IMG/VR virus record: IMGVR_UViG_3300047550_002572
Span: 1 to 56,110 of that record
From: a virus
Taxonomy: Duplodnaviria; Caudoviricetes
Length of the DNA: 56,110 bases
Strand: one strand, 5' to 3'
Translations under genes and position numbers: made by a program
In this document: positions 4,331 to 45,368 of the stretch, one piece after another
Layout of the letters: each line of letters opens with the position of its first letter
How positions within the stretch are numbered: the first letter of the stretch is position 1
Notes under the pieces: generated by a model
What the model saw: the letters and a program-made list of their open reading frames with translations, nothing else
Told to the model about the DNA's origin: nothing
Databases searched by the model: none

Positions 4331-4366
4331 AATTCTCTTGACAGAATTCAAGCATGGGTGTACGAT
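4327..4366 (+). promoter_or_regulatory. Sigma70 promoter with an inverted repeat over the -35
   Basis: TTGACA 4338-4343, 17 nt, TACGAT 4361-4366; CTTGAATTCT (4327-4336) / AGAATTCAAG (4343-4352). Confidence 0.75.
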
Positions 4367-4436
4367 GCTCAGGCAAACCCATCCAGTAGCGGTTGACCTG
4401 GTGTGATACACTAAAGTCAGTCAGCGCACAAGGCTT

Positions 4437-4500
4437 AAAAGCCCTCTCTGATCTTCGCTGCTGGCGGGGGTTTGCAATCAGGGAGGGCTTTTTTCTTTGC
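4437..4500 (+). terminator. Long intrinsic terminator/attenuator hairpin
   Basis: AAAAGCCCTCTCTGAT...ATCAGGGAGGGCTTTT followed by a T-rich tract. Confidence 0.7.
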
Positions 4501-5727: not shown

Positions 5728-5789
5728 CACAGTGACCGTGTGGCCCCGAGCGGTGGTCGGGGCGCTCCTTCCCAGTGGTAATGCTATCT

Positions 5790-5816
5790 GGCCGTGCGAT
5801 GCACGGCCTTCCTTTT
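5790..5816 (+). terminator. Intrinsic terminator
   Basis: GGCCGTGC-GAT-GCACGGCC followed by TTCCTTTT. Confidence 0.7.
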
Positions 5817-5828
5817 CTCGGAGGGTGT

Positions 5829-23787: not shown

Positions 23788-26700
23788 CTATCTTTGCCGC
23801 CGCTTCAACAACGAAGGGCTGTTCCTCACAGGGTTGGTGGGGGTTACTGGGTTTATTGGTAGTGGTTCAGCTTGCTGCATCCCTTTTGACCGTAGTCGTT
23901 CGTTGCCGTAATGAATCGGGACCATCCGAACATGTGCAGGGATGTAGTTAGTAGGCATATAGTTTGATTGGTTTCGACGTAGCCGTTCCTGAATGATGTC
24001 TGCTTCTGTCACATCGGATTCGTGCTGCTCGAGGTAATCTTTGGCTTGTTCGTTCAGGTGCTCTTCTATCATCTCGTGGAGCATCGGGCGCAACCGAGCG
24101 TCAAGACGGCTGTACGCCGCTTTCGTCGGGTTTATGGCGTTGTCTATCGCTGTCATTACAGAGTCCATATCTGTCAGGACATAATTACCTTCTGGGTTGT
24201 AGGCCTTCCAATACTCTCGCATCTTTCGAGAGCCTGGGGGCACCCCTTCCTTGGTTGCGAAGACGATGATCTCTTCTAGTTTCTGCTTGAACTCAGGAGA
24301 CCCATACGGCAGTCGCATTGCGAGCTCTACGCGAGACTGAATGTTCCGCGTGAGCTGGGACTTGGCCCAAGCGTTTTCCTTCTCGATCTCTTGCATCGCT
24401 TCGGTTTCAAAAGGCTTGGGCTTGGTGGGCGTCATTCCAAGCCAGACCATCGCTGCTTCTTCTCCTGTCATCGGAGAGCCTAGCATATGGCGCAAACCTT
24501 GGAACCACCCTTCGCCCGGCTCCACTGGAGTGCTTGGGCCTTCCCGAACCGCAAGAATATCTCCAACGTTAAGCACTTTGTGCAGTGCAAAGTTGAATGC
24601 AGCCTGCATTGCTTCAGGAGTCGCGGCATCGGGAGGCCACAAAGGTTGGCCGGATTTGTCTTTCCCTGTTCCCAGTTCAACTACGGCATTGAAAAACGGG
24701 TGGAGCTGCCCCAGGAACGAGTTTACTGCACGCTGGAACCCACCTTCATACACCGTACTTTCTACGGTTTTCTGAAGAGGCTTGAACATCATGAACATTG
24801 GAAGAGAAGCGAAAGTTCCGTCAGCCCATTCTACGTCGAACTTGTGGCCTGGCGGGTTGTCAAACGTGGGTCTGCCGTTGATGGCAATGTTCAGCATGTT
24901 GTTGAACGCCACGTTCGCAACCATCGTCCCCACGAGATAGTTACCGAGCTGTTTCTTGCGCTGCATCTCGACGGCGGGGGAGATCTTGAAGGCGTGGCGA
25001 GAACGATATCCTGCCGCCTTAAACACGCTGTCCAAAGAATCAACCAACGTATCCCATTTCGACCCTGCATATTGCGGAGCCAGCGTAAGTATCTGCAAGC
25101 CAGTGCGTACCGCAGGGCTCTGCATATGGTGCTGCACAACGCCCGCAAGCCGGTTCACATGATCTGCTGACATTCGCTCGGCAATCGCCAGTGCCGCTGC
25201 GTAGTCGCCACCGGTCTGCTCCATCAGCTTCGTCCCGTTGGCCCGCATCGTCTGACCCGTGTAATAGGCCCACGCCCCAAGCTGGGCGTCACTGAGAGCG
25301 CGGAATAGCCCCACGCTGTTAAGGAACGCATCGGCCCCGTCTAGGAAGCGAAGAGGCATCAAAAGCGTAGAATCAAGGATACCGCCAGTCTTTGCCATCA
25401 GTTTGGCGAACGGGGTGTTCAACCCGAATCGCTCGGTCGCCATCTGCTGTATTAGAGGGTTCTGCTTGGCGGCAGAAACCATGTCGGTGTGCAGCGACGT
25501 GGCGTTGCGGAGCAGAGAAGCGGGCTGAAGCCCTGCGTTCAGTGCTCGGATCATCATAATCCCGCCCTGATCTTCTGCGAGATGCTGCCCTATGGGGATC
25601 AATCCAAACGCCTTTGAGAAGTTGTAACCGAGCAAAGTTGTGTAGTTGCTCATCACCGAGGTCATGTAGTTGAGCGGAGGACCGACCAGCGAAAGGCTGC
25701 GCCAGCCAGTGTACGCCTTTGCTACCTGCCCCATCCCTCCCGTCGTCTGGGGAGAAGTCAGGTAGTCATTGATCAGGTTTGCCGCTTGGGGGTGAATCTT
25801 CCAGCTCCCAATCGCCTTCCCGCCGCTGTATCCCGCAAACGCAGGAACGTCGGATAGGCTCAGGTACTTGCCTTCCTGCATCTGCGACATCCCGCTCTTG
25901 CGGTAGTCGGCTCTGACGTTGGCTTCTGCGAAGCTTTCAAATCGCTTGTTCTTGATGCTGAACAGCAACGGAAGACCTTCGGGGCCTTCCATAATCTTCA
26001 GCTGGTTCATGAACCGTCGAGCGCCGTCTGCGCGGAACGTCGCGTGGACAATCGTGTGAAGGATGTCGCCAACGTCGGTCACAGCGTCGCCCAGAAGCAC
26101 GTTGTGCAGAAGGTCGGAAGCTATGTTCTCATTTACCCCAAGCGCCGCAGCTCTCTGCTGCATCGCCGTCATCCCTTTGCCGCCGTGAAACCCGAACGCA
26201 TATTCTTCCCAGCTCGTGATCGGTTTGCCTTGAGCCGTGGAATAATCTGTGATCTCTTTCATGGCGTCGTTCGCCATGGTTTCGGCTTTCTCGATGGTCT
26301 CAATCTTTCGGGCCTTCTCCCATCCTGCGTGAGGAGACATACGAGCCACGTCATTGCCGCCTCGCTGGATGTACGTCAGGAACCGAGGATGGGTGTGCAT
26401 GAAGTAGTTGGCACGGAACACCGCCGCCAGCTCGGGAGATTGCTGCTTAAACCGCTCAACTGCAGTCATCACGTCGAAGTAGGTTCGAAGCGGCGCGGCG
26501 AGCTGAGACCCGTTCACCTTGACGGTATTGCCTCTTGGGGTCTTAACATCGTAAGACCCTTTCAGGAAGTCGATGAGGGTGTCTTTTCCCCCTTCAATGG
26601 CCGCGACGAGTTTTCGCGTGAACTGCGGGTCAGCTTTTTCTCCCCGCCGAAGCTTAAATATCTCCCCGAATTGCTTGTTGAAGTCTTTCGCTACGTCGTC

Positions 26701-29700
26701 TGCAACGCGAAGTGCCGCTTTTTCGTAAGCCATCATGTGATTGGCGAAGTATGCGCTTCCCCCAAACACTTGGTCTACCGTTTCAAAAGGCTTCATCTGC
26801 CGCGCCAGTGTGCTGAACGCTCGTGTGCCGCTGGAGAACAGGTCTCGGACCCGCTCGATGTAATTGTACGGCTGCGGGGTGTTGGCGTTAGGGACTTTAC
26901 CCGCCGCAATGCCCTCAAGTACGCTACGCGCTGCAGACATTGCGGGAGTTGCGTCTTCCGACATCAACACTGCACCCATCTGCGACAGGGCACTGTCTGT
27001 CGTGTGGATCAGGGCGGGGTCGAGGGCGGCTTCTGCCAGTTTTTCTGCGCTACCGGCCAATGCCCCAATCGGAATGCCGTTCGGGAATGCGTCGCTCTTC
27101 AGGTCCAAGAGACGAGCGAGGAAGTCTGACGCGGTAGGATTTGCAGAGGACATGAGCTCTCGCAATGACGCAGGGATGAATTCAATAGCCCCAGGGATGC
27201 TCATCTCTTCTGTTTTGACGACTTTTGTTTTAACTTTGCCGCCAGGCCCCAAAACAGGAGCCCCATCTTTTGTAACAACTTCCTTGGTCTTTACGGTTTT
27301 GGTAGCCCCACCCAGACGGTCTGCGAAGTCGTCGATGTACCGTATAGCCGCTTTCAATGCGCTGGCTTTCTTGCCGCTTGTGCGAGCCATGGATTCTCGC
27401 ATCGCAGTAGACGCTTGCCGAAGCATAGCGACCTGATTCTCTGCCGCAAGTCGGGTAGGAGCCGACGCTAGAATAGAAGCGTCTACCTGAAGCTGCAGTT
27501 CGCGTTGAAGAAGGGGAACTCGGTTCGCTCCCTCTTTTGGTTGCCCTGTCGCAGGGTCAAGAGGCTGAGAAGCCAGTTGCGCTCTTTCTGTCAGCCGCTG
27601 AACCGTCAATTCATGTTCTGCTTTTTCTGCTGCACTCAACCCATAATTCCCGGAAGTCAAGTGCATTGTAAGAGCGTTTTGATAGTTAGGAATTCGCCCC
27701 TCTAGAAGAGCCGCTTTAGCCTCGGCCTGCACGGTATTCAAAGCTGCTCGGTTCGCAGACAATTTGTTTCGCAGGTCCACGAAAGCCGAATCGTTTACAA
27801 TGAACGGGTTGCTTTCTGCTGCGGCAAGGCGAAGACGGGGGTTTTTAATTGGGTCTGGCAGACTAAGAGACGTGCGAAGACCTGAGTAATGCAGTACCTC
27901 AGGGTCTGACAACAAAGCAGAAACCTCTGCGCTTTTTGTTTTCAGTTCTGCTTCGAGTGTTTTAGCGTAAGCGGTCGGCTTACCGTCAGAACCTGTATGC
28001 GGGATTGGGCTCCCTCCTCTAGGGTTCGGGGAAGACCCAGCCAGAATTTCCGCATTGATCTGGTCTACGCGGTCGGCCAGCGTCCTGTAGCGAAGCACTT
28101 GCGGGTTAGCTTCCATCGCTGTCATCTTGCTAGTAACTGCGTCTAGCGTTTTTTGAGCTGCGTCTCGCTCAGCGTGCGCTTGCCTAGAGCCAATGGAGAT
28201 ACCGCGGATATCTCGGTCGAATCGAGACAGTGCCGCTTCGTTTGTCTCAATCACATCGAGGTGTGCCGTGTGGTTTCTTGCAGCGTGGTCCATGTACGCG
28301 ATCCCTCGCGTGCTGTCGCGCACGAGGTTTGCAAACCACCCTCGAGTGTTGTCGTCCATCAGCTTGGCGTTGGATTCTGCAAAAGAGATAAGACGGTCTT
28401 TCAGGGCTTGCGGAAAGTTGGGAGAGTCCCACATATTGTCTGCAAGACTAGCCGCCTTTTTCCCGTACTCCCCAAAGATCCCAGTGCCTTCGCGCATCTT
28501 CCCGAGCATGTACATTGCCATGTCGGGGCCCTTTTTGAACATACCTCGAACAGTCGCAGCCAACGCTCCTCCGAACGCAGGAAAAACCGCAGTGATTGCA
28601 GCCCCGACCATAGCGTTGTTTCGCCCTGCGACATAGGCGGGCCACATCGCCTGTTCAAGAGTTTTTCCTTGCTGGAACTGGTTTTGGAGCTCTTTGTTCA
28701 TGCCTTCAATACCGAAGACAGTGCCCCAAGTGATGATGTGCCCAAGCTGGCCTTTCTGAGCCAGATAGCCCAATGCCGGTTCAATTTGATGGGTGGCAGA
28801 CCACTCACCGGCCTTCACCAGTGCGGGAGGAAGTTTTTCCGCAAGCAGGCTGAGTCCACCCGACATCGCTGTACGCCCTGCATTGGCAGTAGCACTTCCC
28901 GCCGATGTGAGAAGATTCTTGACGGCAGACGGGATGAACTTTGCCGCCATAATGCCTTCGGCCATGTAGTTAAGAATGGGAAGGTTTGAAGCAAAGTCGT
29001 TGAACCCCATCGCCATTACTGCGCCATTGCCCCAGTTGGCGGGGTTGAAGATCCCAAGGGTGCGTCCTTCGTACTGCTCACGCCACTTCGCGTAGTCTTC
29101 AGGAACCCGCATCTCTGCAGAAAACACTCCAGGTATATAAAGCAGAGAATGGTTGATCGAATGCTTCATCGTCGCGACGGTCCATGCCGAATCGTCCACT
29201 GTGCCATCTGATCGAACCCCATTCCGGAGCATGACCTGAGGCAAGAGGGACTGAGAGATGCGCTGCTCTGGGTCTTGCGCGGTTACGAACGAAGACAGCG
29301 GGCTGTTCTTGTACGGGGGGGCGATCTCGCTCATCGGCTTTGTGAAGAAGTGGAACGGATCGGCAAACGACACAGCGGCAGATAGCATCGTTTTTGCGTT
29401 ACGAGCCATCTGCTCTTGCTCTTGAGGCATCGGGATCGGGCCCCAGCCTGTAGTGTCGGTAACGGTGTCTTTTCGAGTGATGCCCGTATTGCCTATCGTG
29501 GAAGGCTGGCTGTAATCGCCCAGCTCCTGCCGTCCTTTTCGCGCCACTACACCAGGCGCTGACTGGAAGTTCGGATTGTTTACCGCAGCGTCGACATCTT
29601 TTGTGTCAATGCCAAGAATGTTGGCGACATAGTTCTTCGTCTCTTTGTAATCGACCGACCCGTTCTTTATAAATCGAAGAAGACCGGTGTGCTCTTTTGC

Positions 29701-30588
29701 GTCGCCAATCCCTGCGTTGTATGCCGCAAGAGCTCGAGCAGGATTGTTGTTAACCTCGGGACGCTGCATCAAGTCTTTGAAATGATCGACAGCCACCATC
29801 ATCTGCAGGTTCTCGTTGTTAAGGTAATCGTCCCACGTCTTACCTCGCGCCTTCAGGTATTGTGCCGCCGTGCCGGGCATCATCTGCCCCAAGCCGACAG
29901 CTCCTGCCGAAGACTTTGCATCTGGGCGCCAAGCCGATTCCGCACGAAACAGGTTGGAAATAAGGTCTGGGTCAACGCCCTGCTTCGCTGCGTAGGTGCG
30001 GGCAAAGTCTTCCATGTTGGAGCCCGTCCGCACCCTGCCGCTCACCTGCTGCACTGGAGTTTTTCCTTTTGGCAGCGTCTGTGGAAGGCTTAGGTGGAAA
30101 TGCGCGTTTGGATCGCTGTCGCCAGTCCACTCATCAAGCAAGCGCAGGTTGTATTTGTCAGCCAGCGCCTGGAGCTTTGCTAGGCTCTCTGGAGTCTTTT
30201 TGAAGTTCCAGTCGGGAATTACATCAGCCGCTTGCCCAGAGTAGTGCAACGAACCCGTAGTGTGCCCTTTTCCGTCAAGACGAGCGCCGTTGCTGATCTG
30301 ATACTGCGGCCAGATCGTCTGCGCTTCCTTGGAGAACTGCGCGAACCGCTGGGCGAACAAAGGGTGCATGTCGTTGATCTGTTCAAGACCGACAGGGCTT
30401 TGTCTCGGCAGGGAGCTCAGGTAGTGGTAAGGGTTGTTTGGGGGGGCGTTGGGGTCGGAGGAGCCTGTGCTACTAATGCGAGACATAACCCCGTCCCACA
30501 CAGAAGGGGGAGCAGGGGTTGCAGAAGCTGACAAAGGGTCGGTAAGGTTGTTTGGGGAGATCTTTAGGTTGTCCCAAGGGCTTCCCAT
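23788..30588 (-). CDS. Giant internal virion (ejection) protein with N-terminal M15/LAS-like peptidase and lytic transglycosylase domains
   Basis: 2266 aa; SLHYSGQAAD...HFH; ESAW...S.AGAVGLGQMMPGTA...AAYNAG...ETKNYV. Confidence 0.85.
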   Translation of the reverse strand: MGSPWDNLKISPNNLTDPLSASATPAPPSVWDGVMSRISSTGSSDPNAPPNNPYHYLSSLPRQSPVGLEQINDMHPLFAQRFAQFSKEAQTIWPQYQISNGARLDGKGHTTGSLHYSGQAADVIPDWNFKKTPESLAKLQALADKYNLRLLDEWTGDSDPNAHFHLSLPQTLPKGKTPVQQVSGRVRTGSNMEDFARTYAAKQGVDPDLISNLFRAESAWRPDAKSSAGAVGLGQMMPGTAAQYLKARGKTWDDYLNNENLQMMVAVDHFKDLMQRPEVNNNPARALAAYNAGIGDAKEHTGLLRFIKNGSVDYKETKNYVANILGIDTKDVDAAVNNPNFQSAPGVVARKGRQELGDYSQPSTIGNTGITRKDTVTDTTGWGPIPMPQEQEQMARNAKTMLSAAVSFADPFHFFTKPMSEIAPPYKNSPLSSFVTAQDPEQRISQSLLPQVMLRNGVRSDGTVDDSAWTVATMKHSINHSLLYIPGVFSAEMRVPEDYAKWREQYEGRTLGIFNPANWGNGAVMAMGFNDFASNLPILNYMAEGIMAAKFIPSAVKNLLTSAGSATANAGRTAMSGGLSLLAEKLPPALVKAGEWSATHQIEPALGYLAQKGQLGHIITWGTVFGIEGMNKELQNQFQQGKTLEQAMWPAYVAGRNNAMVGAAITAVFPAFGGALAATVRGMFKKGPDMAMYMLGKMREGTGIFGEYGKKAASLADNMWDSPNFPQALKDRLISFAESNAKLMDDNTRGWFANLVRDSTRGIAYMDHAARNHTAHLDVIETNEAALSRFDRDIRGISIGSRQAHAERDAAQKTLDAVTSKMTAMEANPQVLRYRTLADRVDQINAEILAGSSPNPRGGSPIPHTGSDGKPTAYAKTLEAELKTKSAEVSALLSDPEVLHYSGLRTSLSLPDPIKNPRLRLAAAESNPFIVNDSAFVDLRNKLSANRAALNTVQAEAKAALLEGRIPNYQNALTMHLTSGNYGLSAAEKAEHELTVQRLTERAQLASQPLDPATGQPKEGANRVPLLQRELQLQVDASILASAPTRLAAENQVAMLRQASTAMRESMARTSGKKASALKAAIRYIDDFADRLGGATKTVKTKEVVTKDGAPVLGPGGKVKTKVVKTEEMSIPGAIEFIPASLRELMSSANPTASDFLARLLDLKSDAFPNGIPIGALAGSAEKLAEAALDPALIHTTDSALSQMGAVLMSEDATPAMSAARSVLEGIAAGKVPNANTPQPYNYIERVRDLFSSGTRAFSTLARQMKPFETVDQVFGGSAYFANHMMAYEKAALRVADDVAKDFNKQFGEIFKLRRGEKADPQFTRKLVAAIEGGKDTLIDFLKGSYDVKTPRGNTVKVNGSQLAAPLRTYFDVMTAVERFKQQSPELAAVFRANYFMHTHPRFLTYIQRGGNDVARMSPHAGWEKARKIETIEKAETMANDAMKEITDYSTAQGKPITSWEEYAFGFHGGKGMTAMQQRAAALGVNENIASDLLHNVLLGDAVTDVGDILHTIVHATFRADGARRFMNQLKIMEGPEGLPLLFSIKNKRFESFAEANVRADYRKSGMSQMQEGKYLSLSDVPAFAGYSGGKAIGSWKIHPQAANLINDYLTSPQTTGGMGQVAKAYTGWRSLSLVGPPLNYMTSVMSNYTTLLGYNFSKAFGLIPIGQHLAEDQGGIMMIRALNAGLQPASLLRNATSLHTDMVSAAKQNPLIQQMATERFGLNTPFAKLMAKTGGILDSTLLMPLRFLDGADAFLNSVGLFRALSDAQLGAWAYYTGQTMRANGTKLMEQTGGDYAAALAIAERMSADHVNRLAGVVQHHMQSPAVRTGLQILTLAPQYAGSKWDTLVDSLDSVFKAAGYRSRHAFKISPAVEMQRKKQLGNYLVGTMVANVAFNNMLNIAINGRPTFDNPPGHKFDVEWADGTFASLPMFMMFKPLQKTVESTVYEGGFQRAVNSFLGQLHPFFNAVVELGTGKDKSGQPLWPPDAATPEAMQAAFNFALHKVLNVGDILAVREGPSTPVEPGEGWFQGLRHMLGSPMTGEEAAMVWLGMTPTKPKPFETEAMQEIEKENAWAKSQLTRNIQSRVELAMRLPYGSPEFKQKLEEIIVFATKEGVPPGSRKMREYWKAYNPEGNYVLTDMDSVMTAIDNAINPTKAAYSRLDARLRPMLHEMIEEHLNEQAKDYLEQHESDVTEADIIQERLRRNQSNYMPTNYIPAHVRMVPIHYGNERLRSKGMQQAEPLPINPVTPTNPVRNSPSLLKRRQR

Positions 30589-32511
30589 TTACTTCTTGTC
30601 CTTTTGATTGGGCTTAGGAGGAGGGGCAGTGATGAAAGGAATCACGGGAACGTTGATATTGTGGTCTTTTGCGTATTGTTCCATAGTCAACCCGTGGTTG
30701 TACGCAATTCCGTATTTCTCCAGCAACCAATCCGTTTGGCGAATGTAGTTCATCAGTGCGACGTAGTGGCGATATTGGCCCGGAAGCATTCCTGGGCGGC
30801 TAACCCACTGCTGATACGACATAATATGTCCCAAACGCAATTCAGCCATGATCTGGGGGTCATACAGAACGCCGTTGTATAGGTCGGACACTTGTTGCCC
30901 GCTCAACATATCCTTGCCATCGACGGATTTGTCGGGAACGAAAGCCATCTCATCCGCATCCCACTTCTGCGGACGAGCCGGAAAGAAGAGATAGTGCTGA
31001 TAGGTGTTTGGGTGCTCGGATACGGTCTTTGCGACAGAGACAAAGTCGAAGTTCTGGGTCTTTGACGCAATCGCCAACCAGTTTGTGATTCCAAGTGTTT
31101 TGCTTTGTGCGCTCTGCGAGAAGTTTTGTCGGTAATCAGTTGCTTCACTTTGTACTTGCTCGGCAAGCTGATCGTAGATCTTTTTTGCTGTAATTACTTG
31201 ATTCTGGGCGTCAATAAATTCTGGTGTAGGTACTTTCGTGAGCCCCGGATTGGTTGCTTTTTCTTGTGCATTAGGAGGTCGAAACCAAGTTGAAGTGCCT
31301 TGCATCGAACCCACTTTGGTTTGAGCAGCGACGTACTGATTCCACGCTTGTTCGGCAGCGACTTGGGCAGCGTTGACTCGCCCTGCTGCTATCCTCTCGT
31401 TTTGCGCCAAACCTTCCAACGAGAGTCGAACGCCTGTGGCGTCCCTTTCTGCATTAAGGTGCTGGGCCTGTGCGATAGCAAGCTGGATCTTTGCCTTTTC
31501 GGCCATTGGAGCCAAGCCAAGAACAGCGCGACGCTCTTCGGCCTGAGCCATTAAAGCCTCGGTCTGCGCTCGCTGCAAACGAATGCCTTGCAGCCCCGTT
31601 TCTCTTTCTACCTCTTCGTAAGACCGCTCTTTGAGTTTCTGAGCACGCGCTGCCGTTTCTGCATTCAGCTTGCTTGCTTCTGCTTGCGTTCTGTTTGTAA
31701 GGAAGTTTCCAATCTCTTTGTTGTCCAAAAACGCAGTGGCCGAATTCATAAGGGTCAATCGAGCTCGAGCAGGCATGGCGTCCAGCTTCTTGACGAAGTC
31801 GGTGGTCAGGTAGGCTTTTCGGTCGGCAGACCCCGAAGGCCACGAGCCAGTCAGTCGCTCATGCCGAACGCCGTTGATCAGATCAGAAGCGTCGAGTAGG
31901 TTTTGCGTCGTCAGATGCTCCATTGCCAGATGGTCGGTCCCGCCGTTTTTCCCTGCAACGGCTTGAAGCGCGTCTTCTATCATGTCGAACGACTGGCCCA
32001 GCATATACGAATAAGGGTTCTGTGCAAAAAAGGCAGTTAACCCCCCGCCAACTCCTTGCGCGGCTTGGTAGAAGTTTGATACCAACGCTTCTTGAAACGC
32101 AGAAACGGCTGCTCGCGCTGCCGGAGTTTTCCAGCTGTTGATGTATTGTTGTGGCGGGGCAGGACGGCCCAAGATTGCGTCCAGTGACTGATCATAAGAA
32201 AGGTTGGGAGGGGACGGCAAACCCAGCTCTTCTCGAGAAGGGACTCGAAGCATTCTATAGGTCTGCGGAGCCGGCTGCTGGGTAGAGGGGGACGCCAAGT
32301 TATATACAGCAGAAAAGTCTGGAGGCGTCTGCGCGGGAGGGAGCATCGCCGGAGCAGCGGTGGCAGGTGCCGAAGGCGGCGCAACAGGCACTGCCTTTGG
32401 CGCTCTGCTAGGCGGTGCTTGGGCCATCGGGGTCAGATCTACGGGAGGGGCAGAATCCTGAGTACCCCCAGAAGCCGGATCGGAAAACGGGACCCCGTTG
32501 TAGTCAATCAC
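30589..32511 (-). CDS. Internal virion protein
   Basis: Position; Pro-rich N-terminus, Gln/Ala coiled coil. Confidence 0.7.
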   Translation of the reverse strand: MIDYNGVPFSDPASGGTQDSAPPVDLTPMAQAPPSRAPKAVPVAPPSAPATAAPAMLPPAQTPPDFSAVYNLASPSTQQPAPQTYRMLRVPSREELGLPSPPNLSYDQSLDAILGRPAPPQQYINSWKTPAARAAVSAFQEALVSNFYQAAQGVGGGLTAFFAQNPYSYMLGQSFDMIEDALQAVAGKNGGTDHLAMEHLTTQNLLDASDLINGVRHERLTGSWPSGSADRKAYLTTDFVKKLDAMPARARLTLMNSATAFLDNKEIGNFLTNRTQAEASKLNAETAARAQKLKERSYEEVERETGLQGIRLQRAQTEALMAQAEERRAVLGLAPMAEKAKIQLAIAQAQHLNAERDATGVRLSLEGLAQNERIAAGRVNAAQVAAEQAWNQYVAAQTKVGSMQGTSTWFRPPNAQEKATNPGLTKVPTPEFIDAQNQVITAKKIYDQLAEQVQSEATDYRQNFSQSAQSKTLGITNWLAIASKTQNFDFVSVAKTVSEHPNTYQHYLFFPARPQKWDADEMAFVPDKSVDGKDMLSGQQVSDLYNGVLYDPQIMAELRLGHIMSYQQWVSRPGMLPGQYRHYVALMNYIRQTDWLLEKYGIAYNHGLTMEQYAKDHNINVPVIPFITAPPPKPNQKDKK

Positions 32512-33065
32512 CCGTTAACACCTCCAAACATATTTGAATCCATGAGCTGAGTCAGAAAGTTTACCTGATCTGTAGCAGGGCTGTAGTAGCTGGTCGGACC
32601 GTTCGGCTTTGCCACTGGCCCATTATAGACAGGGGGGACCGTCAGGGCATCCCATGTGCTCGGCACACTCGATGCGGGCACAGGCGCTTGGTTTGTGCCC
32701 CCGTAAGGTTCTGGCATTTGCATACTCTGTTGGTACTTTTGCCCGCGCCGAACGTTGCTTTCGTACTCCAACGTTGGCAGATGGTTTTGAATATCTGTGT
32801 ACTGTTGAATCATTGCTTCGGGGGCACCGCTAGCCCGAAGAAACGGAACGCCATATGGTTTTGGCATAGTCAGCGCAACCTTCATGGCTTCCCCGATCTT
32901 GCTCTGCGATTCCGCTTGATTAGCTTTTCCTACGTTGTATGCGTGATAGCCCTTCATAGCTTCCCCACCCATCTGAGCGAGCGCGAGAAGCCGAGCCAGG
33001 AACATATCAAACTTCGGCTGGCGTTGGATGATTTGCGGCTGGGCAATGTTCGACTGTACAATCAC
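32508..33065 (-). CDS. Probable internal virion protein
   Basis: Overlapping start/stop within the ejection cluster. Confidence 0.65.
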   Translation of the reverse strand: MIVQSNIAQPQIIQRQPKFDMFLARLLALAQMGGEAMKGYHAYNVGKANQAESQSKIGEAMKVALTMPKPYGVPFLRASGAPEAMIQQYTDIQNHLPTLEYESNVRRGQKYQQSMQMPEPYGGTNQAPVPASSVPSTWDALTVPPVYNGPVAKPNGPTSYYSPATDQVNFLTQLMDSNMFGGVNG

Positions 33066-33412
33066 GCCGAGAACCCTCCAAACATCCCAGGATCAAAAGG
33101 GTTGTCCACTCCAAAAGTACCAGGCATAGCAGGCATTCCCGTGTAGGCGTTTTGATGTAGCATATCTAGGAACGGGTTGCCCATACCGGGAGAGCCCATT
33201 CCCTGCTGCTGTCCTACGCCGAGCAACCCGAGAAGTGACTTCGGACCAGGCCGACCCGTGCGAAGGAAGTCATACGCCGCCGAAGCCATACCAACTTCAG
33301 GAAAGAACATCCCCGCCATCCCCACAAGCGGCTTCAACCAGCCCATCGGGTCCTGCTGGGGAGGGGCCTGTAGCATTTGAGGCTGTACTACGTTCGGTTG
33401 CACGGTATGCAT
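33062..33412 (-). CDS. Gly/Met/Pro-rich probable internal virion protein
   Basis: SD AAGGAG; N-terminus resembles that of the next gene (VQ.N..QPQ..Q). Confidence 0.65.
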   Translation of the reverse strand: MHTVQPNVVQPQMLQAPPQQDPMGWLKPLVGMAGMFFPEVGMASAAYDFLRTGRPGPKSLLGLLGVGQQQGMGSPGMGNPFLDMLHQNAYTGMPAMPGTFGVDNPFDPGMFGGFSA

Positions 33413-33424
33413 CGCGCTACTCCT

Positions 33425-33916
33425 TTAGTCGCTCTCAAGAAAGTCTAGACTATCTTGCCAGTTCTGTCCACCCAAGGCAGCAGAGATGGTGCTCTCAGAT
33501 ACACCATACCTCTTCGCCATACTCGCTGTCGATACTCCTCGAAGCTTCAGCCGACGAAGCTCGACCACATCCTCTGCCGTCAGGATGGCGTTGTTCTTGT
33601 GTCTGCCGCGGTCCACCATGTCCTGCATGTTCTCGGTGTGGGTCCCAATCTCCAAGTGACCCGGGTTGCAGCACGGAGGGTTGTCGCACTTGTGCCGCAC
33701 CACCAGACCCGACTCCACAGGGCCATGGTACAACATGAACGTCACCCGATGCGTTCGCTCGATCTCGTCCCCGACGCGGATCTTGCCATACCCGTCTGCG
33801 TCTTTGGCCCCCTGAAACTCCCAACAGGGGGTGTCCAGCCCTCGAGGCTCCTTCTTCAAGCGACGGGTCAGTCGGTCTTTCAGCACTACCGCTCTGTCCT
33901 CGGCTATTGCGATCAT
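33425..33916 (-). CDS. Free-standing HNH homing endonuclease with C-terminal HTH
   Basis: CWEFQG..D.DGYG, THRV, VRHKCDNPPCCNPGHLEIGTHTENMQD, LT..DV..LR, MAKRYGVS. Confidence 0.92.
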   Translation of the reverse strand: MIAIAEDRAVVLKDRLTRRLKKEPRGLDTPCWEFQGAKDADGYGKIRVGDEIERTHRVTFMLYHGPVESGLVVRHKCDNPPCCNPGHLEIGTHTENMQDMVDRGRHKNNAILTAEDVVELRRLKLRGVSTASMAKRYGVSESTISAALGGQNWQDSLDFLESD

Positions 33917-36681
33917 CAGAACCCTCCAGGAAGCAGACGACGGTCTGCATTCGGCGGGGTGTACCCACGAAGACGGGCAACGTACTGTCGAATCGCTTCT
34001 TCCTGCTCAGGCGTGAGGCGGCGGGTGGGCCGCACCTCCTGCACTGCGTCTCCGCGACCCTGCATCAGCGCACGAGTCAGATCGCCTGGCTGAACCCCAC
34101 TGGGTCGCTGGGGTTTCTGCGCCATCGCCCGAGGAAGCTGGATAGGCGGCTGCTGGGGCATCACCGCTCTGTGCTGCTGACGAAACTGACGCCGAGTCTG
34201 CGCGGCTTCTTCCTGCGGGTAGGCTCCTGTTGCCGCTTTCATCAACGGCTGCACGACAGGACGAGCGAACGGTTCGGCCATCTTCCCCATACCGTACCCC
34301 ATCGTAGCGGCACGGGTGACTGGATTGAACATAGACGCCACACCCGCCAAACCTCCTACAGTCGGAAGCCACGACGAGGAAGAAGGCGCTTGCCCTGTCG
34401 CCGCCGTGATTGCATCTCGAGTGGCGTCGGCGCCAATCAAACCACCCATAGCAGGCTCGACCAGCTTCGGTGCAGCAGCGTATGCTGCCGAAAACAATGC
34501 ACCCATCAGTCCGGCGTGAGCGGCAGCCTTTACCGCCTGCTCGTGGGTAGCCCCGTTCTGTATTGCGTCGGCGTAGGCCGATGCCGCAGGGAAGCCGAGC
34601 CCTGCCGTTGTTCCCGCCACCAAGCCAGACGATGCTGCCCCTCTTCGCCATCCGTTTCGCCCTTTTGGTTCGCTGTACGGAAGAGGTTCGAATGACTCAG
34701 TAACGGGATTCCACGACCCTACAATTGGGCTAGGGCGATGTCCCCCTTTGTTACCGAACGACACTGAAGGTGGCGATATTGGCTCCGTATTCTTTTTGAT
34801 CTGAAACGCAACACCTTCAGGAGGAGTGTCAGTTACATATTCCGGAGGGACGACAAATTGATGCTCTCCTCCTGTTTTTCTGTATCTAGCCGTAGGGTCA
34901 GGCATTGGTTCTTCTACAGGGTGATAAAGAGTCCAATCTCCTGGCTCTTGAGACAGATTTGCAACGTGCTCGGCCTCCCAGTGTTCTAGGTCGGCATTTT
35001 CTTTTATTTTTTTGAAAAGAGGAGCAGCGTGTTCTCCTTCGTATATTTTTCTATAAGTTTTTGGATTTGTTAAATCTACCGAATTGTCCCAGAATTCTGA
35101 AAATATTTTACCTGTTTTTGAGTCTTGAATTATAGGGTCAGATTCTTTTGAAGACAAAGCTCTTGTAGTAGAAGGATGCCAATCAAAGCCTTCAGGAAAT
35201 GCTTTATTGGGGGTATCTGTATAAAAAGGGTTGTCGGGCACGGCAGAAGTCGCGTAGTCGGTAAGATAGGCGTGCAAAGAAGGGTTGGTGCCTTTCAACT
35301 CTTTTCTAGACAACCACATAGAAGGGTTTAGATATTCTTCGTTTGCTGCCGCTGGATGAAACATCTGAGTTGCCGCAGAAGTAGCGTCCATAAACGGGTA
35401 TAGCTCAGTCCACCCGTAAGTCCTACGAGGTTGAGCTCGCGCATACAGTTTTTCCGCAATCAGTTCTTCAATAGATTTTTCTGGGGGGTAATTAGCCGAG
35501 TTCTGCCCAGATGATGGCGGCATATCGCTATTTCCGTGTTCTCCTCCCGGCAAAGGCATACCGCTTCTGCCGTAAGAGGGTGTTATGTTTTCTGATTGTG
35601 CTAAAGACGGCCCGCTTGCGTTAGAACCCCGACGTTGGAACATCTCGCTGCCCGGCGCGGGCGCCACCATCTTCGGCGCGACGGTGGGCTCGGCGGGGGA
35701 GACCGGCACGTTGCCTTGAGGAGCCCATATCTCGATGCGGTCCCGCTGGGGGGCGGCGGGCTGATCCCATCCAGGCTGGGTGTAGTCCATGTACGCTTTG
35801 AGCAGATGCTTGACCGTAGGAATGTCCCACCCGTTGCCAATCATCTTCTTCTGCTCGGTCCACGGGGCGCCCGCTGCAGCCATAGTCCCTTCAGGAATGC
35901 CGTGGAGCATCTCTCCCGCTCTAGGGGTCCAACGCCAAATCTGCCCGCCGGGTTCGAGCTGCACCGTATCGTAGGGGATCCCGTGAGCGCCATACGCTCG
36001 CGTCCAAGCTCGAGCCTTGGGAAGGTCCCAGCCGCGCATCGGCTTCCACAATTTGCTCGTGTTCTTCTCGTAGCCCTGAGTGCCTTCAGTCAGGCGGTAG
36101 GTGCGGTGCTCATTAAACGGGTCGAACAAATGCCGAGCAGGGTCAATCAGCTCGCGAGGGTCTACGCCCTGCCCCTCCATCGGCTTGACGGGGAACGTAG
36201 GCCAGAAAAGACGAGGGCGGCTGACACCACCCACATGGCCTGCGTCCAACAAAACGGGGGAAATACCGAGACGGTTGCTGATGGCATCTCGGGTTTGAGG
36301 CGTCATCGACGCTACGCTCTCAAACCACCCATGCGGGTTGCCCAGCGCGTCCCACAAATCCGCAGTCGGGTAGAACAACCCTGAGCGAGCACCCGACAAC
36401 CCCTGACGATTGGGCGTGCCAATAGACACGTCTTGGCAAGGAGGGCCTGCCGTAAACAGTCCGGGTTTGCACGGGAACCTTCCCGGAGTTACACCCTCAA
36501 TAGGGCCGAGATGCTGGATGTTGGGATTCAATGCTTGGGAGGTTTTTACCGCCCATGGGTTCATTTCGGGGTGCTCTGAAGCCCAGTGCTCTCCAATAGA
36601 AATACCAAGCTGCCGAAGGGCCTCTGCACCACTGCCCCACCCGTCAAAGGCCGAGAAGTAGTCAATAGGACTCGGCGGCAT
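33916..36681 (-). CDS. Fusion: N-terminal Dnmt3-like C5 DNA methyltransferase plus ejection-protein-like C-terminal region
   Basis: FSAFDGWGSG, ASE, AGPPCQDVS, SGLF, FESVASM, SRPRLFW, EMLHGIP, IGNGW in the first ~300 aa; Gly/Ala hydrophobic helices near the C-terminus. Confidence 0.85.
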   Translation of the reverse strand: MPPSPIDYFSAFDGWGSGAEALRQLGISIGEHWASEHPEMNPWAVKTSQALNPNIQHLGPIEGVTPGRFPCKPGLFTAGPPCQDVSIGTPNRQGLSGARSGLFYPTADLWDALGNPHGWFESVASMTPQTRDAISNRLGISPVLLDAGHVGGVSRPRLFWPTFPVKPMEGQGVDPRELIDPARHLFDPFNEHRTYRLTEGTQGYEKNTSKLWKPMRGWDLPKARAWTRAYGAHGIPYDTVQLEPGGQIWRWTPRAGEMLHGIPEGTMAAAGAPWTEQKKMIGNGWDIPTVKHLLKAYMDYTQPGWDQPAAPQRDRIEIWAPQGNVPVSPAEPTVAPKMVAPAPGSEMFQRRGSNASGPSLAQSENITPSYGRSGMPLPGGEHGNSDMPPSSGQNSANYPPEKSIEELIAEKLYARAQPRRTYGWTELYPFMDATSAATQMFHPAAANEEYLNPSMWLSRKELKGTNPSLHAYLTDYATSAVPDNPFYTDTPNKAFPEGFDWHPSTTRALSSKESDPIIQDSKTGKIFSEFWDNSVDLTNPKTYRKIYEGEHAAPLFKKIKENADLEHWEAEHVANLSQEPGDWTLYHPVEEPMPDPTARYRKTGGEHQFVVPPEYVTDTPPEGVAFQIKKNTEPISPPSVSFGNKGGHRPSPIVGSWNPVTESFEPLPYSEPKGRNGWRRGAASSGLVAGTTAGLGFPAASAYADAIQNGATHEQAVKAAAHAGLMGALFSAAYAAAPKLVEPAMGGLIGADATRDAITAATGQAPSSSSWLPTVGGLAGVASMFNPVTRAATMGYGMGKMAEPFARPVVQPLMKAATGAYPQEEAAQTRRQFRQQHRAVMPQQPPIQLPRAMAQKPQRPSGVQPGDLTRALMQGRGDAVQEVRPTRRLTPEQEEAIRQYVARLRGYTPPNADRRLLPGGF

Positions 36682-37563
36682 CTACTTCTTGCCTCCCCCG
36701 CCCCCGCTCACGGTCTGGGCGCCTGGAATGATTGTAGGGGCCATAATCGGGCTACCGTTCAAATACCCAAGACCTGCCTGCAGCGGGGCGTTGTTGATGT
36801 TAGAAATCATCCCCAACATCGACGGGACGACGTTCTGAGCCTGCTCAGTTGCCTGCATCGGACTGCCAAGGATACGCTGCGCTGCCTGCGCGGCCAACCC
36901 CTGCCGATTGATTGCCAGCGACTGTGCGGTCTGCCCAAGGTTGGACGCCGCTTCCGCTCCCAGCTCTCGAGCCGAGTTGAGGTACCCGCTGTGAAACGGG
37001 GTACCCCCGAACTTGTTCCCAAGCTGGGCCATCTGGGAATTCAGCAGACGGGTCTGGCGCTCGCCCTCGGAATTGAGAAAAGCGTTCTCTGTTGCGTTGA
37101 ACCCCGGCTGGAACAACCCCTGCTGAAACGCAGCAGCCCCAGGAATCGCCTGCGCCCCGAACGAGGCGATAGTAGACGCCATGTTCTGGTTGGCTTGGTA
37201 AGGATCGGTGATTCCGCTGTTGCCGTTGAAGAAATGGCTTTGGGCGTCGGTCATCCCACCGCTACTCCCTGGGCTGCTGGGGTCTACTGCAGATGTCGGC
37301 TTTGTCGTTGGGCTGCTGGTAGTTGCACTCCCCGAAGAAGTGCTGGTCGAGCTCCCTGACGATGTGTTGTTCGAGGGGAACTTGCCGCCACCGCCTGCAG
37401 AAGGGCCAGACCCCATAGGGGGAGGCTGAATCCCATAAGGGTTGAGATTCCCTCCATACGCGCCAGGCCCTGAAGCGGTGCCCGAATGAGGGCTCTGCCA
37501 AGACGAGAAAGGAACAGGACCTACATTGTTGTTGGTCCCTTGATTAGTAGGTGAACCGCCCAT
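36682..37563 (-). CDS. Internal virion / pilot-type protein
   Basis: Gly/Ser/Gln-rich, GG.PF.SG motif, ends GGGGGKK. Confidence 0.7.
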   Translation of the reverse strand: MGGSPTNQGTNNNVGPVPFSSWQSPHSGTASGPGAYGGNLNPYGIQPPPMGSGPSAGGGGKFPSNNTSSGSSTSTSSGSATTSSPTTKPTSAVDPSSPGSSGGMTDAQSHFFNGNSGITDPYQANQNMASTIASFGAQAIPGAAAFQQGLFQPGFNATENAFLNSEGERQTRLLNSQMAQLGNKFGGTPFHSGYLNSARELGAEAASNLGQTAQSLAINRQGLAAQAAQRILGSPMQATEQAQNVVPSMLGMISNINNAPLQAGLGYLNGSPIMAPTIIPGAQTVSGGGGGKK

Positions 37564-37578
37564 CTCTGCATTTACCCC

Positions 37579-37977
37579 CTAAAAAGGCTTGGTTGGCGGG
37601 TACATCCCACCGGAATGAGTAGACCCGCCAGAAGGGGGCTGGTACTGCGTAGGAGGAGAGAACCGACCCGCAGACGACAACCCGAACGGGGTGACGCTGT
37701 TGAGACTCTGAACACCGTAGCCGTTGCCGTACATCTGGTTGTACGCATTCTGGTTGAACACGGGCATGGAAGTTCGCATATAGTTGTTCAGCGGATAGAG
37801 CTGCATGGGCGTGTGGTTGTAGTTGCCCTCGTTTGCTCGCATCATCGCCATCGTATAATCGGCCAACAGATTGTCCGTAGCACGTTGCCCCTCGGACAGC
37901 ACATTGTTGCGATCTGGCTGTATCGTCTGAGGGGGTGCCTGTTGAACCTGCTGCCCGCCTCCACCGCCTTTACCCAT
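37579..37977 (-). CDS. Small virion protein (MGKGGGG start)
   Basis: N-terminus typical of podovirus internal-protein precursors; SD GGAGG. Confidence 0.65.
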   Translation of the reverse strand: MGKGGGGGQQVQQAPPQTIQPDRNNVLSEGQRATDNLLADYTMAMMRANEGNYNHTPMQLYPLNNYMRTSMPVFNQNAYNQMYGNGYGVQSLNSVTPFGLSSAGRFSPPTQYQPPSGGSTHSGGMYPPTKPF

Positions 37978-38449
37978 CGTTCTTGCCTCCTTCCAACGGC
38001 TTGCCTATTGTGATGTATAGAGGTTTGAACCCGTATCGCTTGTCTATTGCCCGAAGCTTGAACGGGTTCTTGCTGCTCACCCGAACATTTGCCGTGACGT
38101 AATTGTGCTTCATCATGCGGCCCCACTCTTCCACTGCTGCGTTCATCAAGTCGCCTGCCGCTCGAGGAGCCTTTGGGTCGATGTAGCACACATGCACAAA
38201 CGACTGCGGAACCGGCCCCGCAAAGATGTCTGGAGCATAGATCTCATAGACAATCGACAGACCGACCAGATCCTGGTCCTCTCGAACGCAGAGAACTGCG
38301 TACCGTGGGTCTACCAGAGAAAGCTTGAAGTAGCGCCGCAACCCTTCCTTGTTCAAATCGAACCGAGACGTGAACGGGCCAAGACAGAACTTTTCGTACA
38401 GACGCTCGATCTCAGGCCAGTTCTCCAAGTCCGCTTTGAACACTTGCAT
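37970..38449 (-). CDS. GNAT-fold acetyltransferase-like protein
   Basis: LVG, YIDPK.....G.LM.AVEEWG, RYGFKP; usual position ahead of the ejection genes. Confidence 0.7.
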   Translation of the reverse strand: MQVFKADLENWPEIERLYEKFCLGPFTSRFDLNKEGLRRYFKLSLVDPRYAVLCVREDQDLVGLSIVYEIYAPDIFAGPVPQSFVHVCYIDPKAPRAAGDLMNAAVEEWGRMMKHNYVTANVRVSSKNPFKLRAIDKRYGFKPLYITIGKPLEGGKNDG

Positions 38450-38486
38450 GGCTACCCTCTACTTTACCATACCTGCAGATATAGAC

Positions 38487-38660
38487 TCAACCCGCAGGAG
38501 GCACGGCGGCAGGGTAGCACTCCTCGCAGTAATCCTTCGTGTTGTCGCCTACCGGCCACGTTGCCACGCGGCACTGCACACACAGCCGCTTGTTGCACCC
38601 GTCACAGACAGCCACGGGAATACACGTGCAACATTCACAGGTCAACGCAACGTACTGCAT
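38487..38660 (-). CDS. 57-aa Cys-rich Zn-finger protein, not in the ORF track
   Basis: SD AGGAGG; CECCTC...CDGC...LCVQC...YCEEC. Confidence 0.65.
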   Translation of the reverse strand: MQYVALTCECCTCIPVAVCDGCNKRLCVQCRVATWPVGDNTKDYCEECYPAAVPPAG

Positions 38661-38669
38661 TTCTACCTC

Positions 38670-39605
38670 CTACGTCTTGATTATGAAGTTGATGCTGGCC
38701 CACGGGTGCATATTGTTGTGCGCCCCTCCGCCGCCCGTGTTGCCAATGACAGCATTGCTAGACGCAGTGGACCCCGTGATGGTGTGGTTGTGGGCAGAGC
38801 CGGTGCCTGTATTAGACGTGGCGCTCCACGTTACACCGCCAGAACCTGAAGCCACCGTATTTCCACCGCCCGTACCTGTGATGTAGGACGCACCGCTGGC
38901 GGTAGCGTGCGTGTGTGCTGATTCATTGGCCGTTGACAAGCCTGTCGCACTGTGCGTGTGACCGCTGTCGGTGTGGTTGTGGGCCGGTATTTCACCAGTG
39001 ACGAGCTGGTGGGTTTCCGCACCGCCTGTCGCGCCAAGAGCGCGAGTAGTCAAACCTGTTCCAGCTCCTGCGCCTACAGGAGACCGTCCCCGAAGGTCTG
39101 GGACATAGAACGTAGTGCCTGACGCAGGCGCAGGATACGGCGAGACGTACAGACTGTGGGTGCCGCTCTGAGCGCCGCTCGTGTTGATAGACGAACCGCC
39201 AGCTGTTGCAGAAACCTGAAACGTGTTTGCTGCTGCGCTGACAACGTAATAAACAGTACGAACCGTCAGACCCGTGGGCAACGCACCAGTAGTCTCAAAG
39301 AAAACAGGAGTGCCGTTTGTGAGGCCGTGTGCGTTCAGCGTCACAACACCCGGACTGGCGATGCTGATCGTAGGGTTGCCTTTAGACGGGTACAACACTG
39401 CGAACAGCGACGCATAGGTAGAGCGGCTCACCGAGGAACCGTCACAGAACAACCACCCTGTCGGCTGAACCGCCCCTGCGTACATCTGCACCACGCCAAC
39501 AATCGGGATGGCGTAAGCAGCCCCAGAAGCGTCTACAAGCGAATCACCAGACTGAAGCTGCTGTATTTCGCCATTATATACTGCAAGCGGAGCCTTTGAC
39601 GCCAT
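38670..39605 (-). CDS. Tail fibre with collar domain
   Basis: P.GWLFCDGS.VSR.TY..LFAV, PDLRGR..VGAG, HxH repeats, HNN.HP...INFIIK. Confidence 0.9.
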   Translation of the reverse strand: MASKAPLAVYNGEIQQLQSGDSLVDASGAAYAIPIVGVVQMYAGAVQPTGWLFCDGSSVSRSTYASLFAVLYPSKGNPTISIASPGVVTLNAHGLTNGTPVFFETTGALPTGLTVRTVYYVVSAAANTFQVSATAGGSSINTSGAQSGTHSLYVSPYPAPASGTTFYVPDLRGRSPVGAGAGTGLTTRALGATGGAETHQLVTGEIPAHNHTDSGHTHSATGLSTANESAHTHATASGASYITGTGGGNTVASGSGGVTWSATSNTGTGSAHNHTITGSTASSNAVIGNTGGGGAHNNMHPWASINFIIKT

Positions 39606-39607
39606 GA

Positions 39608-40090
39608 CTACAACGCAATGTACGGGCGAGGCTTGACGAGCATCTCAGTGGTGGAAAGACCCATCCCTACACGAGTAACATACTGACCAGCCGCAGTAGG
39701 GGCCGTCGAAGTGAGCGCACCCGCCGTGTCCTTTGACAAGTAATACACAGTACCCGCAGTAAGACCGCCCGTCGTACCGCAGATCGCGTCCCACGTTCCT
39801 GTAGTGGTTGACAGGACACCATCAAGCACCACAGAGCCAGAAGCCGCCGCAGAGATGCTAGCGTCGTACACCAGCCCAATCGCCTGCGCTGTGCCGCTTG
39901 CATCCGCTTTCGCCTTCTTCACTGTACTAGCGGCGCTGACGTACACGGGAAGGCCAATCGTAATTGCTCCCGCTTCTCCGTTCGTAAACGCATAGATGTC
40001 TGGGGTTGTAGTGGGAGCGTCCAGCGTATCACCCGCAGGAAGCTGCTTGATGATTCCAGAGTCGATGACAAGCGGTTTACGAGAAGCCAT
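39608..40090 (-). CDS. Tail/virion structural protein
   Basis: MASRKPLV shared with the fibre gene; GL..G..YYLS....G.LT.TAP. Confidence 0.75.
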   Translation of the reverse strand: MASRKPLVIDSGIIKQLPAGDTLDAPTTTPDIYAFTNGEAGAITIGLPVYVSAASTVKKAKADASGTAQAIGLVYDASISAAASGSVVLDGVLSTTTGTWDAICGTTGGLTAGTVYYLSKDTAGALTSTAPTAAGQYVTRVGMGLSTTEMLVKPRPYIAL

Positions 40091-45306: not shown

Positions 45307-45368
45307 ATTTTAGGGCCTCCTTTCAACTGAGAGACTGCTTGTGAAGACCGACTACCTTTTTGAAACGT

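Follow-up and report, generated by a model that had tools for sequence, protein, structure and literature searches.

We analysed the virus record IMGVR_UViG_3300047550_002572, a linear stretch of 56,110 bases with an estimated completeness of 89% (the window). Its minus strand carries the genes for the terminase, the portal, the major head protein and the tail fibre and, together with them, an open reading frame (ORF) of 921 amino acids (aa) in which a C5 cytosine methylase-like domain is fused to about 600 residues of other sequence (P0001; 33916-36681, ATG start). A first reading of this DNA from its letters alone, here called the sequence-only reading, had pointed to this ORF, and the exact coordinates and the length of the product were borne out. 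The frame is open on the minus strand; the plus-strand translation of the same stretch is interrupted by many stops. The gene had also been described as lying on the late strand and not in the DNA-metabolism arm. We find the same arrangement: the replication arm, with a helicase, a DNA polymerase, a UvsX-like recombinase, a DnaB-like helicase, SbcD and SbcC, runs on the plus strand, while the fusion gene stands with the structural genes on the minus strand. The parts of the fusion protein and the genes around it are collected in Table 1.

Table 1. Parts of the methylase fusion gene and neighbouring features of the late strand (positions are those of the window).
Feature	Position	Strand	Basis or remark
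Whole ORF (P0001), 921 aa	33916..36681	-	From N- to C-terminus: methyltransferase, linker, exchangeable cassette, conserved C-terminal module
Predicted Dnmt3-like C5 cytosine methyltransferase domain, aa 1-325	35707..36681	-	Motifs I, II, IV, VI, VIII, IX and X intact
Pro/Ala-rich linker, aa 301-349	35635..35781	-	Composition; kept among alleles up to the left recombination boundary
Exchangeable middle cassette, aa 350-687	34621..35634	-	Foreign composition; replaced in P0003, P0006 and the X4 and X8 contigs
Gly/Ala-rich, moderately hydrophobic helical segments, aa 682-793	34303..34638	-	Hydropathy; small-xxx-small spacing
Polar Q/R/P-rich tail and terminal helix, aa 794-921	33919..34302	-	Composition; last 62 aa remain in P0004
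Tail fibre protein, upstream end of the block	38670..39605	-	phrog_9116, phrog_8469, phrog_8763, E 3e-22 to 9e-21
G/S/T/P/Q-rich protein of 293 aa, without family match	36682..37563	-	Stop abuts the methylase start
HNH endonuclease with C-terminal helix-turn-helix (HTH)	33425..33916	-	PF13392 HNH_3, E 2.8e-14; phrog_1872, E 7.6e-32
Three ORFs of 116, 185 and 640 aa, without family match	30589..33412	-	Q/P/G/M-rich or Pro/Ala-rich
Protein of 2266 aa, SLT lytic transglycosylase domain at aa ~190-350	23788..30588	-	PF01464, E 1.2e-17

Judged by its sequence, the N-terminal domain is a motif-complete Dnmt3-like C5 methyltransferase. In enzymes of this class, motif I (FxGxG) binds S-adenosylmethionine and motif IV holds the Pro-Cys nucleophile, while motifs VI, VIII and X are marked by Glu, Arg-x-Arg and Gly-Asn, respectively. 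All seven motifs that the sequence-only reading had listed are present in the translation in the canonical order: FDGWG (aa 12-16), ASE (34-36), PPCQ (80-83), ESV (121-123), RPRLFW (155-160), EMLHGIP (257-263) and IGNGW (281-285, with GNGW at 282-285). The Pfam family PF00145 was matched at 24.5 bits over aa 10-108 (E 2.2e-5), which passes the family threshold (gathering score 22), and the match to phrog_116 'DNA methyltransferase' spans aa 2-324 (E 1.3e-19). Performing a phmmer search against the PDB at E <= 0.01, we obtained 31 distinct sequences, and 29 of them were DNMT3A, DNMT3B or DNMT3C chains (E 2e-15 to 7e-13). The remaining two belong to entries titled 'DNA methyltransferase' (4onj and 4onq), and no M.HhaI-type bacterial chain was found among the matches at this threshold. 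The bacterial Dcm model TIGR00675 reached only 20 bits against a cut-off of 100.65. With the DNMT3 chains so dominant and the Dcm model so far below its cut-off, the 'Dnmt3-family flavour' reported earlier is confirmed. In the alignment with DNMT3B, motifs I, IV, VI and VIII fall within a single stretch and motif X within a second one; the spacing between motifs VIII and IX is only ~90 residues.

The domain shares its motif order and key residues with DNMT3A/3B/3C, its best solved relatives, and with the phage C5 methylases of phrog_116, which have a short target recognition domain. To the phage enzymes it is only ~25-27% identical, and here the domain lies N-terminal to ~600 aa of unrelated sequence. 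The two closest phage methylases that we inspected, out of 133 matching records, are those of MaeS and P2559Y, stand-alone proteins of 301 and 337 aa encoded in early or DNA-metabolism regions. As the inspected phage relatives stand alone and outside structural modules, we consider the fusion and its late-block placement unusual. The domain is 95-97% identical in two further alleles of the gene, P0003 and P0006, and the listed motifs are unchanged in all three. From this conservation and the complete set of motifs, we infer that the methylase head is probably active. The nearest non-allelic methylase relative in the class of 506-1612 aa is P0007 (1212 aa, from a 377-kb contig), with 31% identity over 53% of the query; by eye, it resembles a large eukaryote-type multi-domain protein with a DNMT3-like domain at its C-terminus.

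The public gene call for the ORF starts at M40 and gives a product of 882 aa (P0002). Such a start would cut motif I off the methylase domain. The upstream ATG follows immediately after the stop codon of the preceding gene (TAGATG) and has a GGAGG-type site before it, and the gene calls of both relatives, P0003 and P0006, use the equivalent start. We therefore take the 921-aa form as the product.

What the sequence-only reading did not contain is the exchangeable middle of this gene; nor did it contain the HNH gene that is coupled to it. We find that aa ~350-687 are an in-frame cassette that is exchanged between closely related phages, and this cassette between a constant methylase head and a C-terminal module is the new observation of this work. 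Three full-length alleles, of 921 aa (the window), 997 aa (P0003) and 588 aa (P0006), carry the same head and unrelated middles. P0003 has 97% identity to the window protein at aa 1-349 and 94% at aa 681-921, with no similarity in the part between. In P0006, identity over the first 330 aa is 95%, and a third, shorter middle comes next; its C-terminus is also shorter but retains the first Gly/Ala segment with the motif after it, as well as a similar terminal helix. A remnant of 85 aa (P0004) represents an in-frame deletion that joined the first 23 aa to the last 62 aa. Identity among the alleles ends at aa 349, and the corresponding DNA joint lies at position 35639 in contigs from two other metagenome runs (X4 and X8, see below). 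The cassette has a GC content of 46.5%, compared with 61% in the methylase part and 64% in the C-terminal part. Measured in 600-nt windows, its value of 0.427 is the lowest in the whole window (mean 0.576, standard deviation 0.036), about 4 standard deviations below the mean. No convincing repeats flanking the cassette were found. Other, shallower GC troughs, more than 2 standard deviations below the mean, lie at 30501-31500, 45101-46150, 3901-4650 and 5901-6600; the 640-aa ORF holds one of them in its 3' part, and another falls in a 437-aa ORF beside the major head gene. Other segments may have been exchanged at these troughs.

A steep fall in GC content within an ORF could also hint at a join, and the sequence-only reading had itself allowed that the fusion might be an assembly chimera. 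The evidence spoke for a real gene. The Logan re-assembly of the probable source sample (run X1) gave one contig of 23,104 nt over 33400-37600 with 0 differences; the assembler is independent, although the underlying data are not. The phage lineage, known from metagenomes only, is widespread; among the matches listed, 24 metagenome runs from 10 studies hold part of 33400-37600, each with 21-100% of the sampled words, and these are freshwater, aquatic or reservoir metagenomes. Two of the 24 runs come from a single sample and are flagged as a possible source, and contigs were compared for four runs (X1, X3, X4 and X8). Two further studies contributed runs X4 and X8, each with a single contig that joins both flanks at 95-97% identity and has different letters in place of 34619-35639. 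The tool reported 527 letters between these flanks, while the record coordinates imply ~1247, and a span of ~1247 letters agrees with the 76 additional residues of P0003. In run X3, which belongs to yet another study, we found small contigs of ~99% identity with a loose end at 35635, and these include a 268-nt piece inside the window's own cassette with 1 difference. Parts of the stretch left uncovered in X3, X4 and X8 were not counted as absence.

Head and tail of the gene are thus joined in single contigs from two further studies, and a piece of the window's cassette is found in a third. An open frame of 338 codons in DNA of 46% GC would arise by chance with a probability of ~1e-8, as estimated from base composition. 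Considering the re-assembly, the contigs across studies and the three full-length alleles, we rejected the idea of a chimera, and we see practically no chance that the fusion is an assembly artefact or a mis-called ORF.

The cassette of P0003 leads to other phage proteins. Its first module resembles a part of P0005, a protein of 1597 aa, with 44% identity, and P0005 in turn matches the phrog_21 'portal protein' profile at positions 1019-1284 of 1362 (E 1e-34). The matched region of phrog_21 is the far C-terminal extension that is carried by portal-fused proteins. P0005 itself, from a 42.6-kb contig, is a large phage-type protein that has a module of ~140 aa in common with the P0003 cassette; by eye it contains a ParB-like GHNR motif and an HExxH motif, and Pfam gave no significant match. 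For the second module of the P0003 cassette, ART-PolyVal is no more than a lead, the Atlas scores (0.87 and 0.86) being below the bar of 0.9. A 259-aa stretch of this cassette, modelled alone with AlphaFold, reached a predicted local distance difference test (pLDDT) score of 36.7, too low for fold comparison. The window's own cassette had no match in PHROGs and gave no usable feature match in the Atlas, where the structure rows had template-modelling (TM) scores of at most 0.33 on a model of pLDDT 0.47.

The sequence-only reading had called the partner of the methylase an ejection-type protein. A partner of ~600 non-methylase residues in one frame with the methylase is there, but no ejection family was matched with Pfam, PHROGs, the PDB or tblastn. 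At E <= 10, the PDB search of the non-methylase part returned two chance-level rows only (E 2.2 and 2.6), and Pfam searches with the cassette and the C-terminus in pieces gave nothing meaningful. The whole protein matched nothing besides the C5 methylase in Pfam at E <= 0.1 and nothing beyond dcm in NCBIfam, and PHROGs at E <= 0.01 yielded no ejection-protein family for the 592 non-methylase residues. With tblastn against phages at E <= 1, we found nothing for the C-terminal 240 aa and nothing for the cassette. A phmmer search with aa 330-921 against 1.84 billion representative proteins returned only the protein itself and the remnant P0004. A word-indexed search that scored 8000 candidates returned two of them, the window protein and its allele P0003; the search with aa 1-330 added P0006 and the distant P0007. 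Scans of viral contigs with the C-terminus, with a 524-aa structural protein of the same strand or with the methylase domain gave no match, and neither did a scan of metagenome contigs with the methylase domain or of genome contigs with the alignment A2. No exact 30-mer match was found in the viral or metagenome contig collections, and megablast of 30000-40000 against phages gave none either. The AlphaFold model of the full protein (4-row alignment A1) had a mean pLDDT of 31.1, too low for fold comparison.

The protein had further been said to end in Gly/Ala hydrophobic helices. Such segments do exist at aa 682-789 and are moderately hydrophobic, but a polar tail of ~130 aa follows them. Their 19-residue Kyte-Doolittle maxima are 0.92-1.29 (aa 682-704, 716-741 and 771-789), and AlphaFold predicted helices there at low confidence (pLDDT 40-55).

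Along the minus strand, the genes for the large terminase, the portal and the major head protein are followed by those for the 524-aa structural protein, the tail fibre, an acetyltransferase-like ORF and two low-complexity proteins of 132 and 293 aa. Then come the fusion gene, the HNH gene, the ORFs of 116, 185 and 640 aa, and the gene of the 2266-aa SLT protein. The last of these matches phrog_342 'internal virion protein with endolysin domain' (E 2.7e-15), phrog_669 (E 5.6e-21) and Slt70 (E 3e-8). For the 524-aa protein, PHROGs gave phrog_3287 'virion structural protein' (E 5e-32), and tblastn against phages found a single match, a 'phage stabilization protein'. The earlier statement that the fusion gene abuts internal virion genes therefore holds in a looser sense: the SLT protein starts 3.3 kb downstream, but the direct neighbours are the 293-aa low-complexity protein and the HNH endonuclease. 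The start codon of the HNH gene overlaps the stop codon of the fusion gene (TGATG), and the stretch that holds the HNH gene (33400-34619) is covered by the X4 and X8 contigs at ~95% identity. The Pfam families of the SU10 podophage portal and adaptor were matched below threshold, and among the late ORFs scanned we found no sheath, tube or tape-measure match; we therefore regard the phage as podovirus-like. The gene context fits a podovirus internal-protein block. Predicted promoters in 30000-40000 (7, against 4.2 +/- 2.2 in shuffled sequences) and terminators (13, against 9.5 +/- 2.8) were not above expectation.

We made several other observations around the block. The 116-aa (33062-33412) and 185-aa (32508-33065) ORFs, both on the minus strand, look like paralogues by eye, each with a Q/P-rich N-terminus, a similar opening and an MFGG-type motif at the end. 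Paralogy of the 116-aa ORF with the C-terminal module of the fusion protein was considered and dropped, as the BLASTP E value of 0.093 in a single comparison is not significant. The acetyltransferase-like ORF, of 159 aa (37970-38449, minus strand), lies between the tail fibre and low-complexity genes and has a weak match to phrog_1249 (E 1.2e-4). In the replication arm, a second methylase-like gene (16823-18046, plus strand) matches phrog_1008 'DNA methyltransferase' at aa 79-375 (E 1e-19). It gave no Pfam, NCBIfam or PDB match, neither motif I nor a Pro-Cys motif was seen in its translation, and a second long ORF overlaps it in another frame (16825-18024). A PAPS-reductase-like protein (5775-6602, plus strand) is encoded beside the DNA polymerase gene; it matches phrog_424 at E 3.9e-49 and nothing in Pfam at E <= 0.01. 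This protein might be part of a DNA-modification pathway.

The window as a whole is poor in GC-rich palindromes. CCGG occurs 106 times against 266 expected (0.40) and CGCG 236 times against 362. Four six-letter palindromes are nearly missing: AGCGCT was observed 0 times (23.5 expected), GACGTC once (21.8), GCCGGC once (14.3) and TGGCCA once (18.4). This pattern suggests heavy restriction pressure on the phage. Methylation is thus not its only answer to restriction.

Among known systems, the podovirus ejection proteins (T7 gp14-16; P22 gp7, gp20 and gp16) share with the fusion protein a location after the tail genes, in a run that ends in a large protein bearing a lytic transglycosylase domain. 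Low-complexity neighbours and Gly/Ala-rich helices add to the likeness; the gene order appears to resemble that of the T7 and P22 ejection-gene blocks. Unlike these proteins, the fusion protein shows no sequence similarity to an ejection protein over aa 350-921 in Pfam, PHROGs, PDB or tblastn searches. The 85-aa remnant suggests that it is dispensable, which core ejection proteins are not.

For polyvalent proteins, whose genes lie beside late or virion genes, injection together with the DNA has been proposed (Iyer et al. 2017, PMC5512222). The fusion gene has the same kind of location, and like these proteins its product is built of several shuffled modules and includes a DNA-modifying enzyme; polyvalent proteins are proposed to act at or just after DNA entry. 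The defining set is at least two disparate domains (MPTase, ART, SNF2, N6A methylase, MuF or LPDs). In the fusion protein we find a C5 methylase only, and none of the hallmark domains MPTase, ART, SNF2 and MuF was detected by Pfam. The methylase of the polyvalent proteins is described as N6-adenine-specific and as linked to LPD36 and a SWI2/SNF2 helicase (PMC5512222). In the main text of that paper, the word 'cytosine' occurs in the reference list only, and its supplements may list C5-methylase architectures. GNAT domains are named there among the polyvalent-protein domains, which may be compared with the weak acetyltransferase match of the 159-aa ORF.

DarB of phage P1 is prepackaged in the capsid (PMC6630229). 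Phages of the Bcep22 and Atu_ph08 types, which the same paper calls T7-like, encode DarB-like giants that begin with cell-wall hydrolase domains, and the Atu_ph08 protein has 4877 aa (PMC6630229). DarB is a particle-associated methylase proposed to protect the incoming DNA, whereas for the fusion protein it is the context that points to a role in the particle. The architectures also differ: DarB combines an N6-adenine methylase with an SF2/SNF2-type helicase, whereas the fusion protein has a C5 methylase, 921 aa and no helicase match in Pfam, PHROGs or NCBIfam, and the SLT domain sits on the separate 2266-aa protein. We therefore liken the fusion protein to a small polyvalent or DarB-type cargo protein, although it lacks the domain set of the former and the architecture of the latter.

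Our tentative reading, to which we give somewhat less than an even chance, is that the fusion is a modular, dispensable accessory protein of the internal-virion block and a candidate polyvalent-type virion cargo. It would be made late, alongside its low-complexity neighbours and the SLT-bearing 2266-aa protein, and the C-terminal module would bring it into the particle or the ejection assembly. It would then enter the next host together with the DNA, so that the methylase and the variable cassette would be cargo acting as soon as infection begins. Being made late, the enzyme might also methylate progeny DNA before packaging. In support of this, the constancy of head and tail with three different middles and a remnant is the kind of modularity typical of delivered effector loci. 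The path from the P0003 cassette through P0005 to the phrog_21 portal extension provides a link to virion-fused proteins. The interpretation given by the sequence-only reading is thus partly supported, with its central claim, packaging and co-injection, as a candidate role suggested by gene context.

In a bolder form, the gene would be a 'cargo-swap' locus, in which the methylase head and an incorporation module are fixed and the middle effector is exchanged by recombination within a natural freshwater phage population that has at least three alleles plus a null; the particle would inject its DNA along with the methylase and a variable second effector. The protein would be a C5 counterpart of DarB that follows the logic of polymorphic effector loci. 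We consider this bolder form unlikely.

Several points weigh against virion cargo. The 592 non-methylase residues match no ejection, internal-virion or polyvalent family (Pfam, PHROGs, PDB, tblastn, NCBIfam). The ART-PolyVal lead in P0003 was not borne out: PF18760 is not in the Pfam list at E <= 10, and folding gave no confirmation. With hydropathy no higher than given above, the Gly/Ala segments are not classical membrane helices. The argument for association with the particle comes from the gene context; and since the block also includes the HNH gene and a weak acetyltransferase-like match, position alone is no proof of a virion role. Provided that its genome is viable, the 85-aa allele implies that the particle can do without the protein, which would then be no essential part of the ejectosome. 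Because the gene is expressed late, injection is not needed for the protection of progeny. Finally, the strong avoidance of GC-rich palindromes argues that the phage does not rely on blanket methylation.

A rival explanation is a late modification enzyme that is not packaged and marks progeny genomes in the producing cell, either ahead of packaging or while it goes on, with nothing injected. Several phage methylases act late on progeny DNA. The gene sits in a late operon, its methylase is intact, the remainder matches no virion family, and the remnant suggests that it is dispensable for particle formation. In this case, the extension would tether the enzyme to the membrane or hold it where particles are assembled or DNA is packaged, or it would serve an unrelated second function. 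However, this explanation does not account for an extension of ~600 aa with an exchangeable cassette, nor for the placement in the low-complexity/SLT block and not beside the methylase-like gene of the replication arm, and the relatives that we inspected manage as stand-alone enzymes. We consider it somewhat unlikely. The overlap of the methylase stop with the HNH start raises another question, whether a mobile methylase-HNH pair has landed in an internal-protein gene as a restriction-modification-like or homing cassette. The methylase would shield the phage DNA from the coupled HNH nuclease, and the ~600 aa would be the rest of an older virion gene. An HNH_3 domain with an HTH is typical of free-standing homing-type enzymes, the X4 and X8 contigs cover the HNH-holding stretch together with the fused gene, and the recombination breakpoints cluster in the fusion gene. 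Yet ~600 codons stand between the 5' methylase and the 3' HNH gene, and the cassette boundaries are not beside the HNH gene. The methylase and the C-terminal module are also similar in GC content, and the middle alone is foreign. A mobile pair thus appears quite improbable to us. That the methylase fold is kept as a non-catalytic DNA-binding module, for example to hold the genome end in the capsid, would suit the modest Pfam match, which is limited to part of the domain. But the phrog_116 match spans nearly the whole domain, and the motif I, the Pro-Cys of motif IV, the Glu of motif VI, the Arg-x-Arg of motif VIII and the Gly-Asn of motif X are all present, with the listed motifs unchanged in three alleles. 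We regard a non-catalytic role as very improbable.

Virion cargo, our preferred if tentative reading, would have a bearing on how phages protect their DNA. Injected antirestriction is known for DarB-type adenine methylase-helicases and is predicted for polyvalent proteins. In our literature search, we came across no account of a C5 methylase, Dnmt3-like or other, that serves as an internal-virion or ejection protein. Even if the fusion protein is not packaged, the gene is a clean natural case of in-frame cassette exchange within a phage gene. Its alleles co-occur across several freshwater studies, and the deletion allele is a possible natural knock-out for methylome comparison. In summary, the locus is an unusual and well-documented modular one that comes with a testable hypothesis. 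Should the protein be packaged, it would bring cytosine methylation into the range of co-injected DNA modifications, and its head, swappable cassette and anchor would form a compact natural scaffold for studying how phages load and deliver enzymes.

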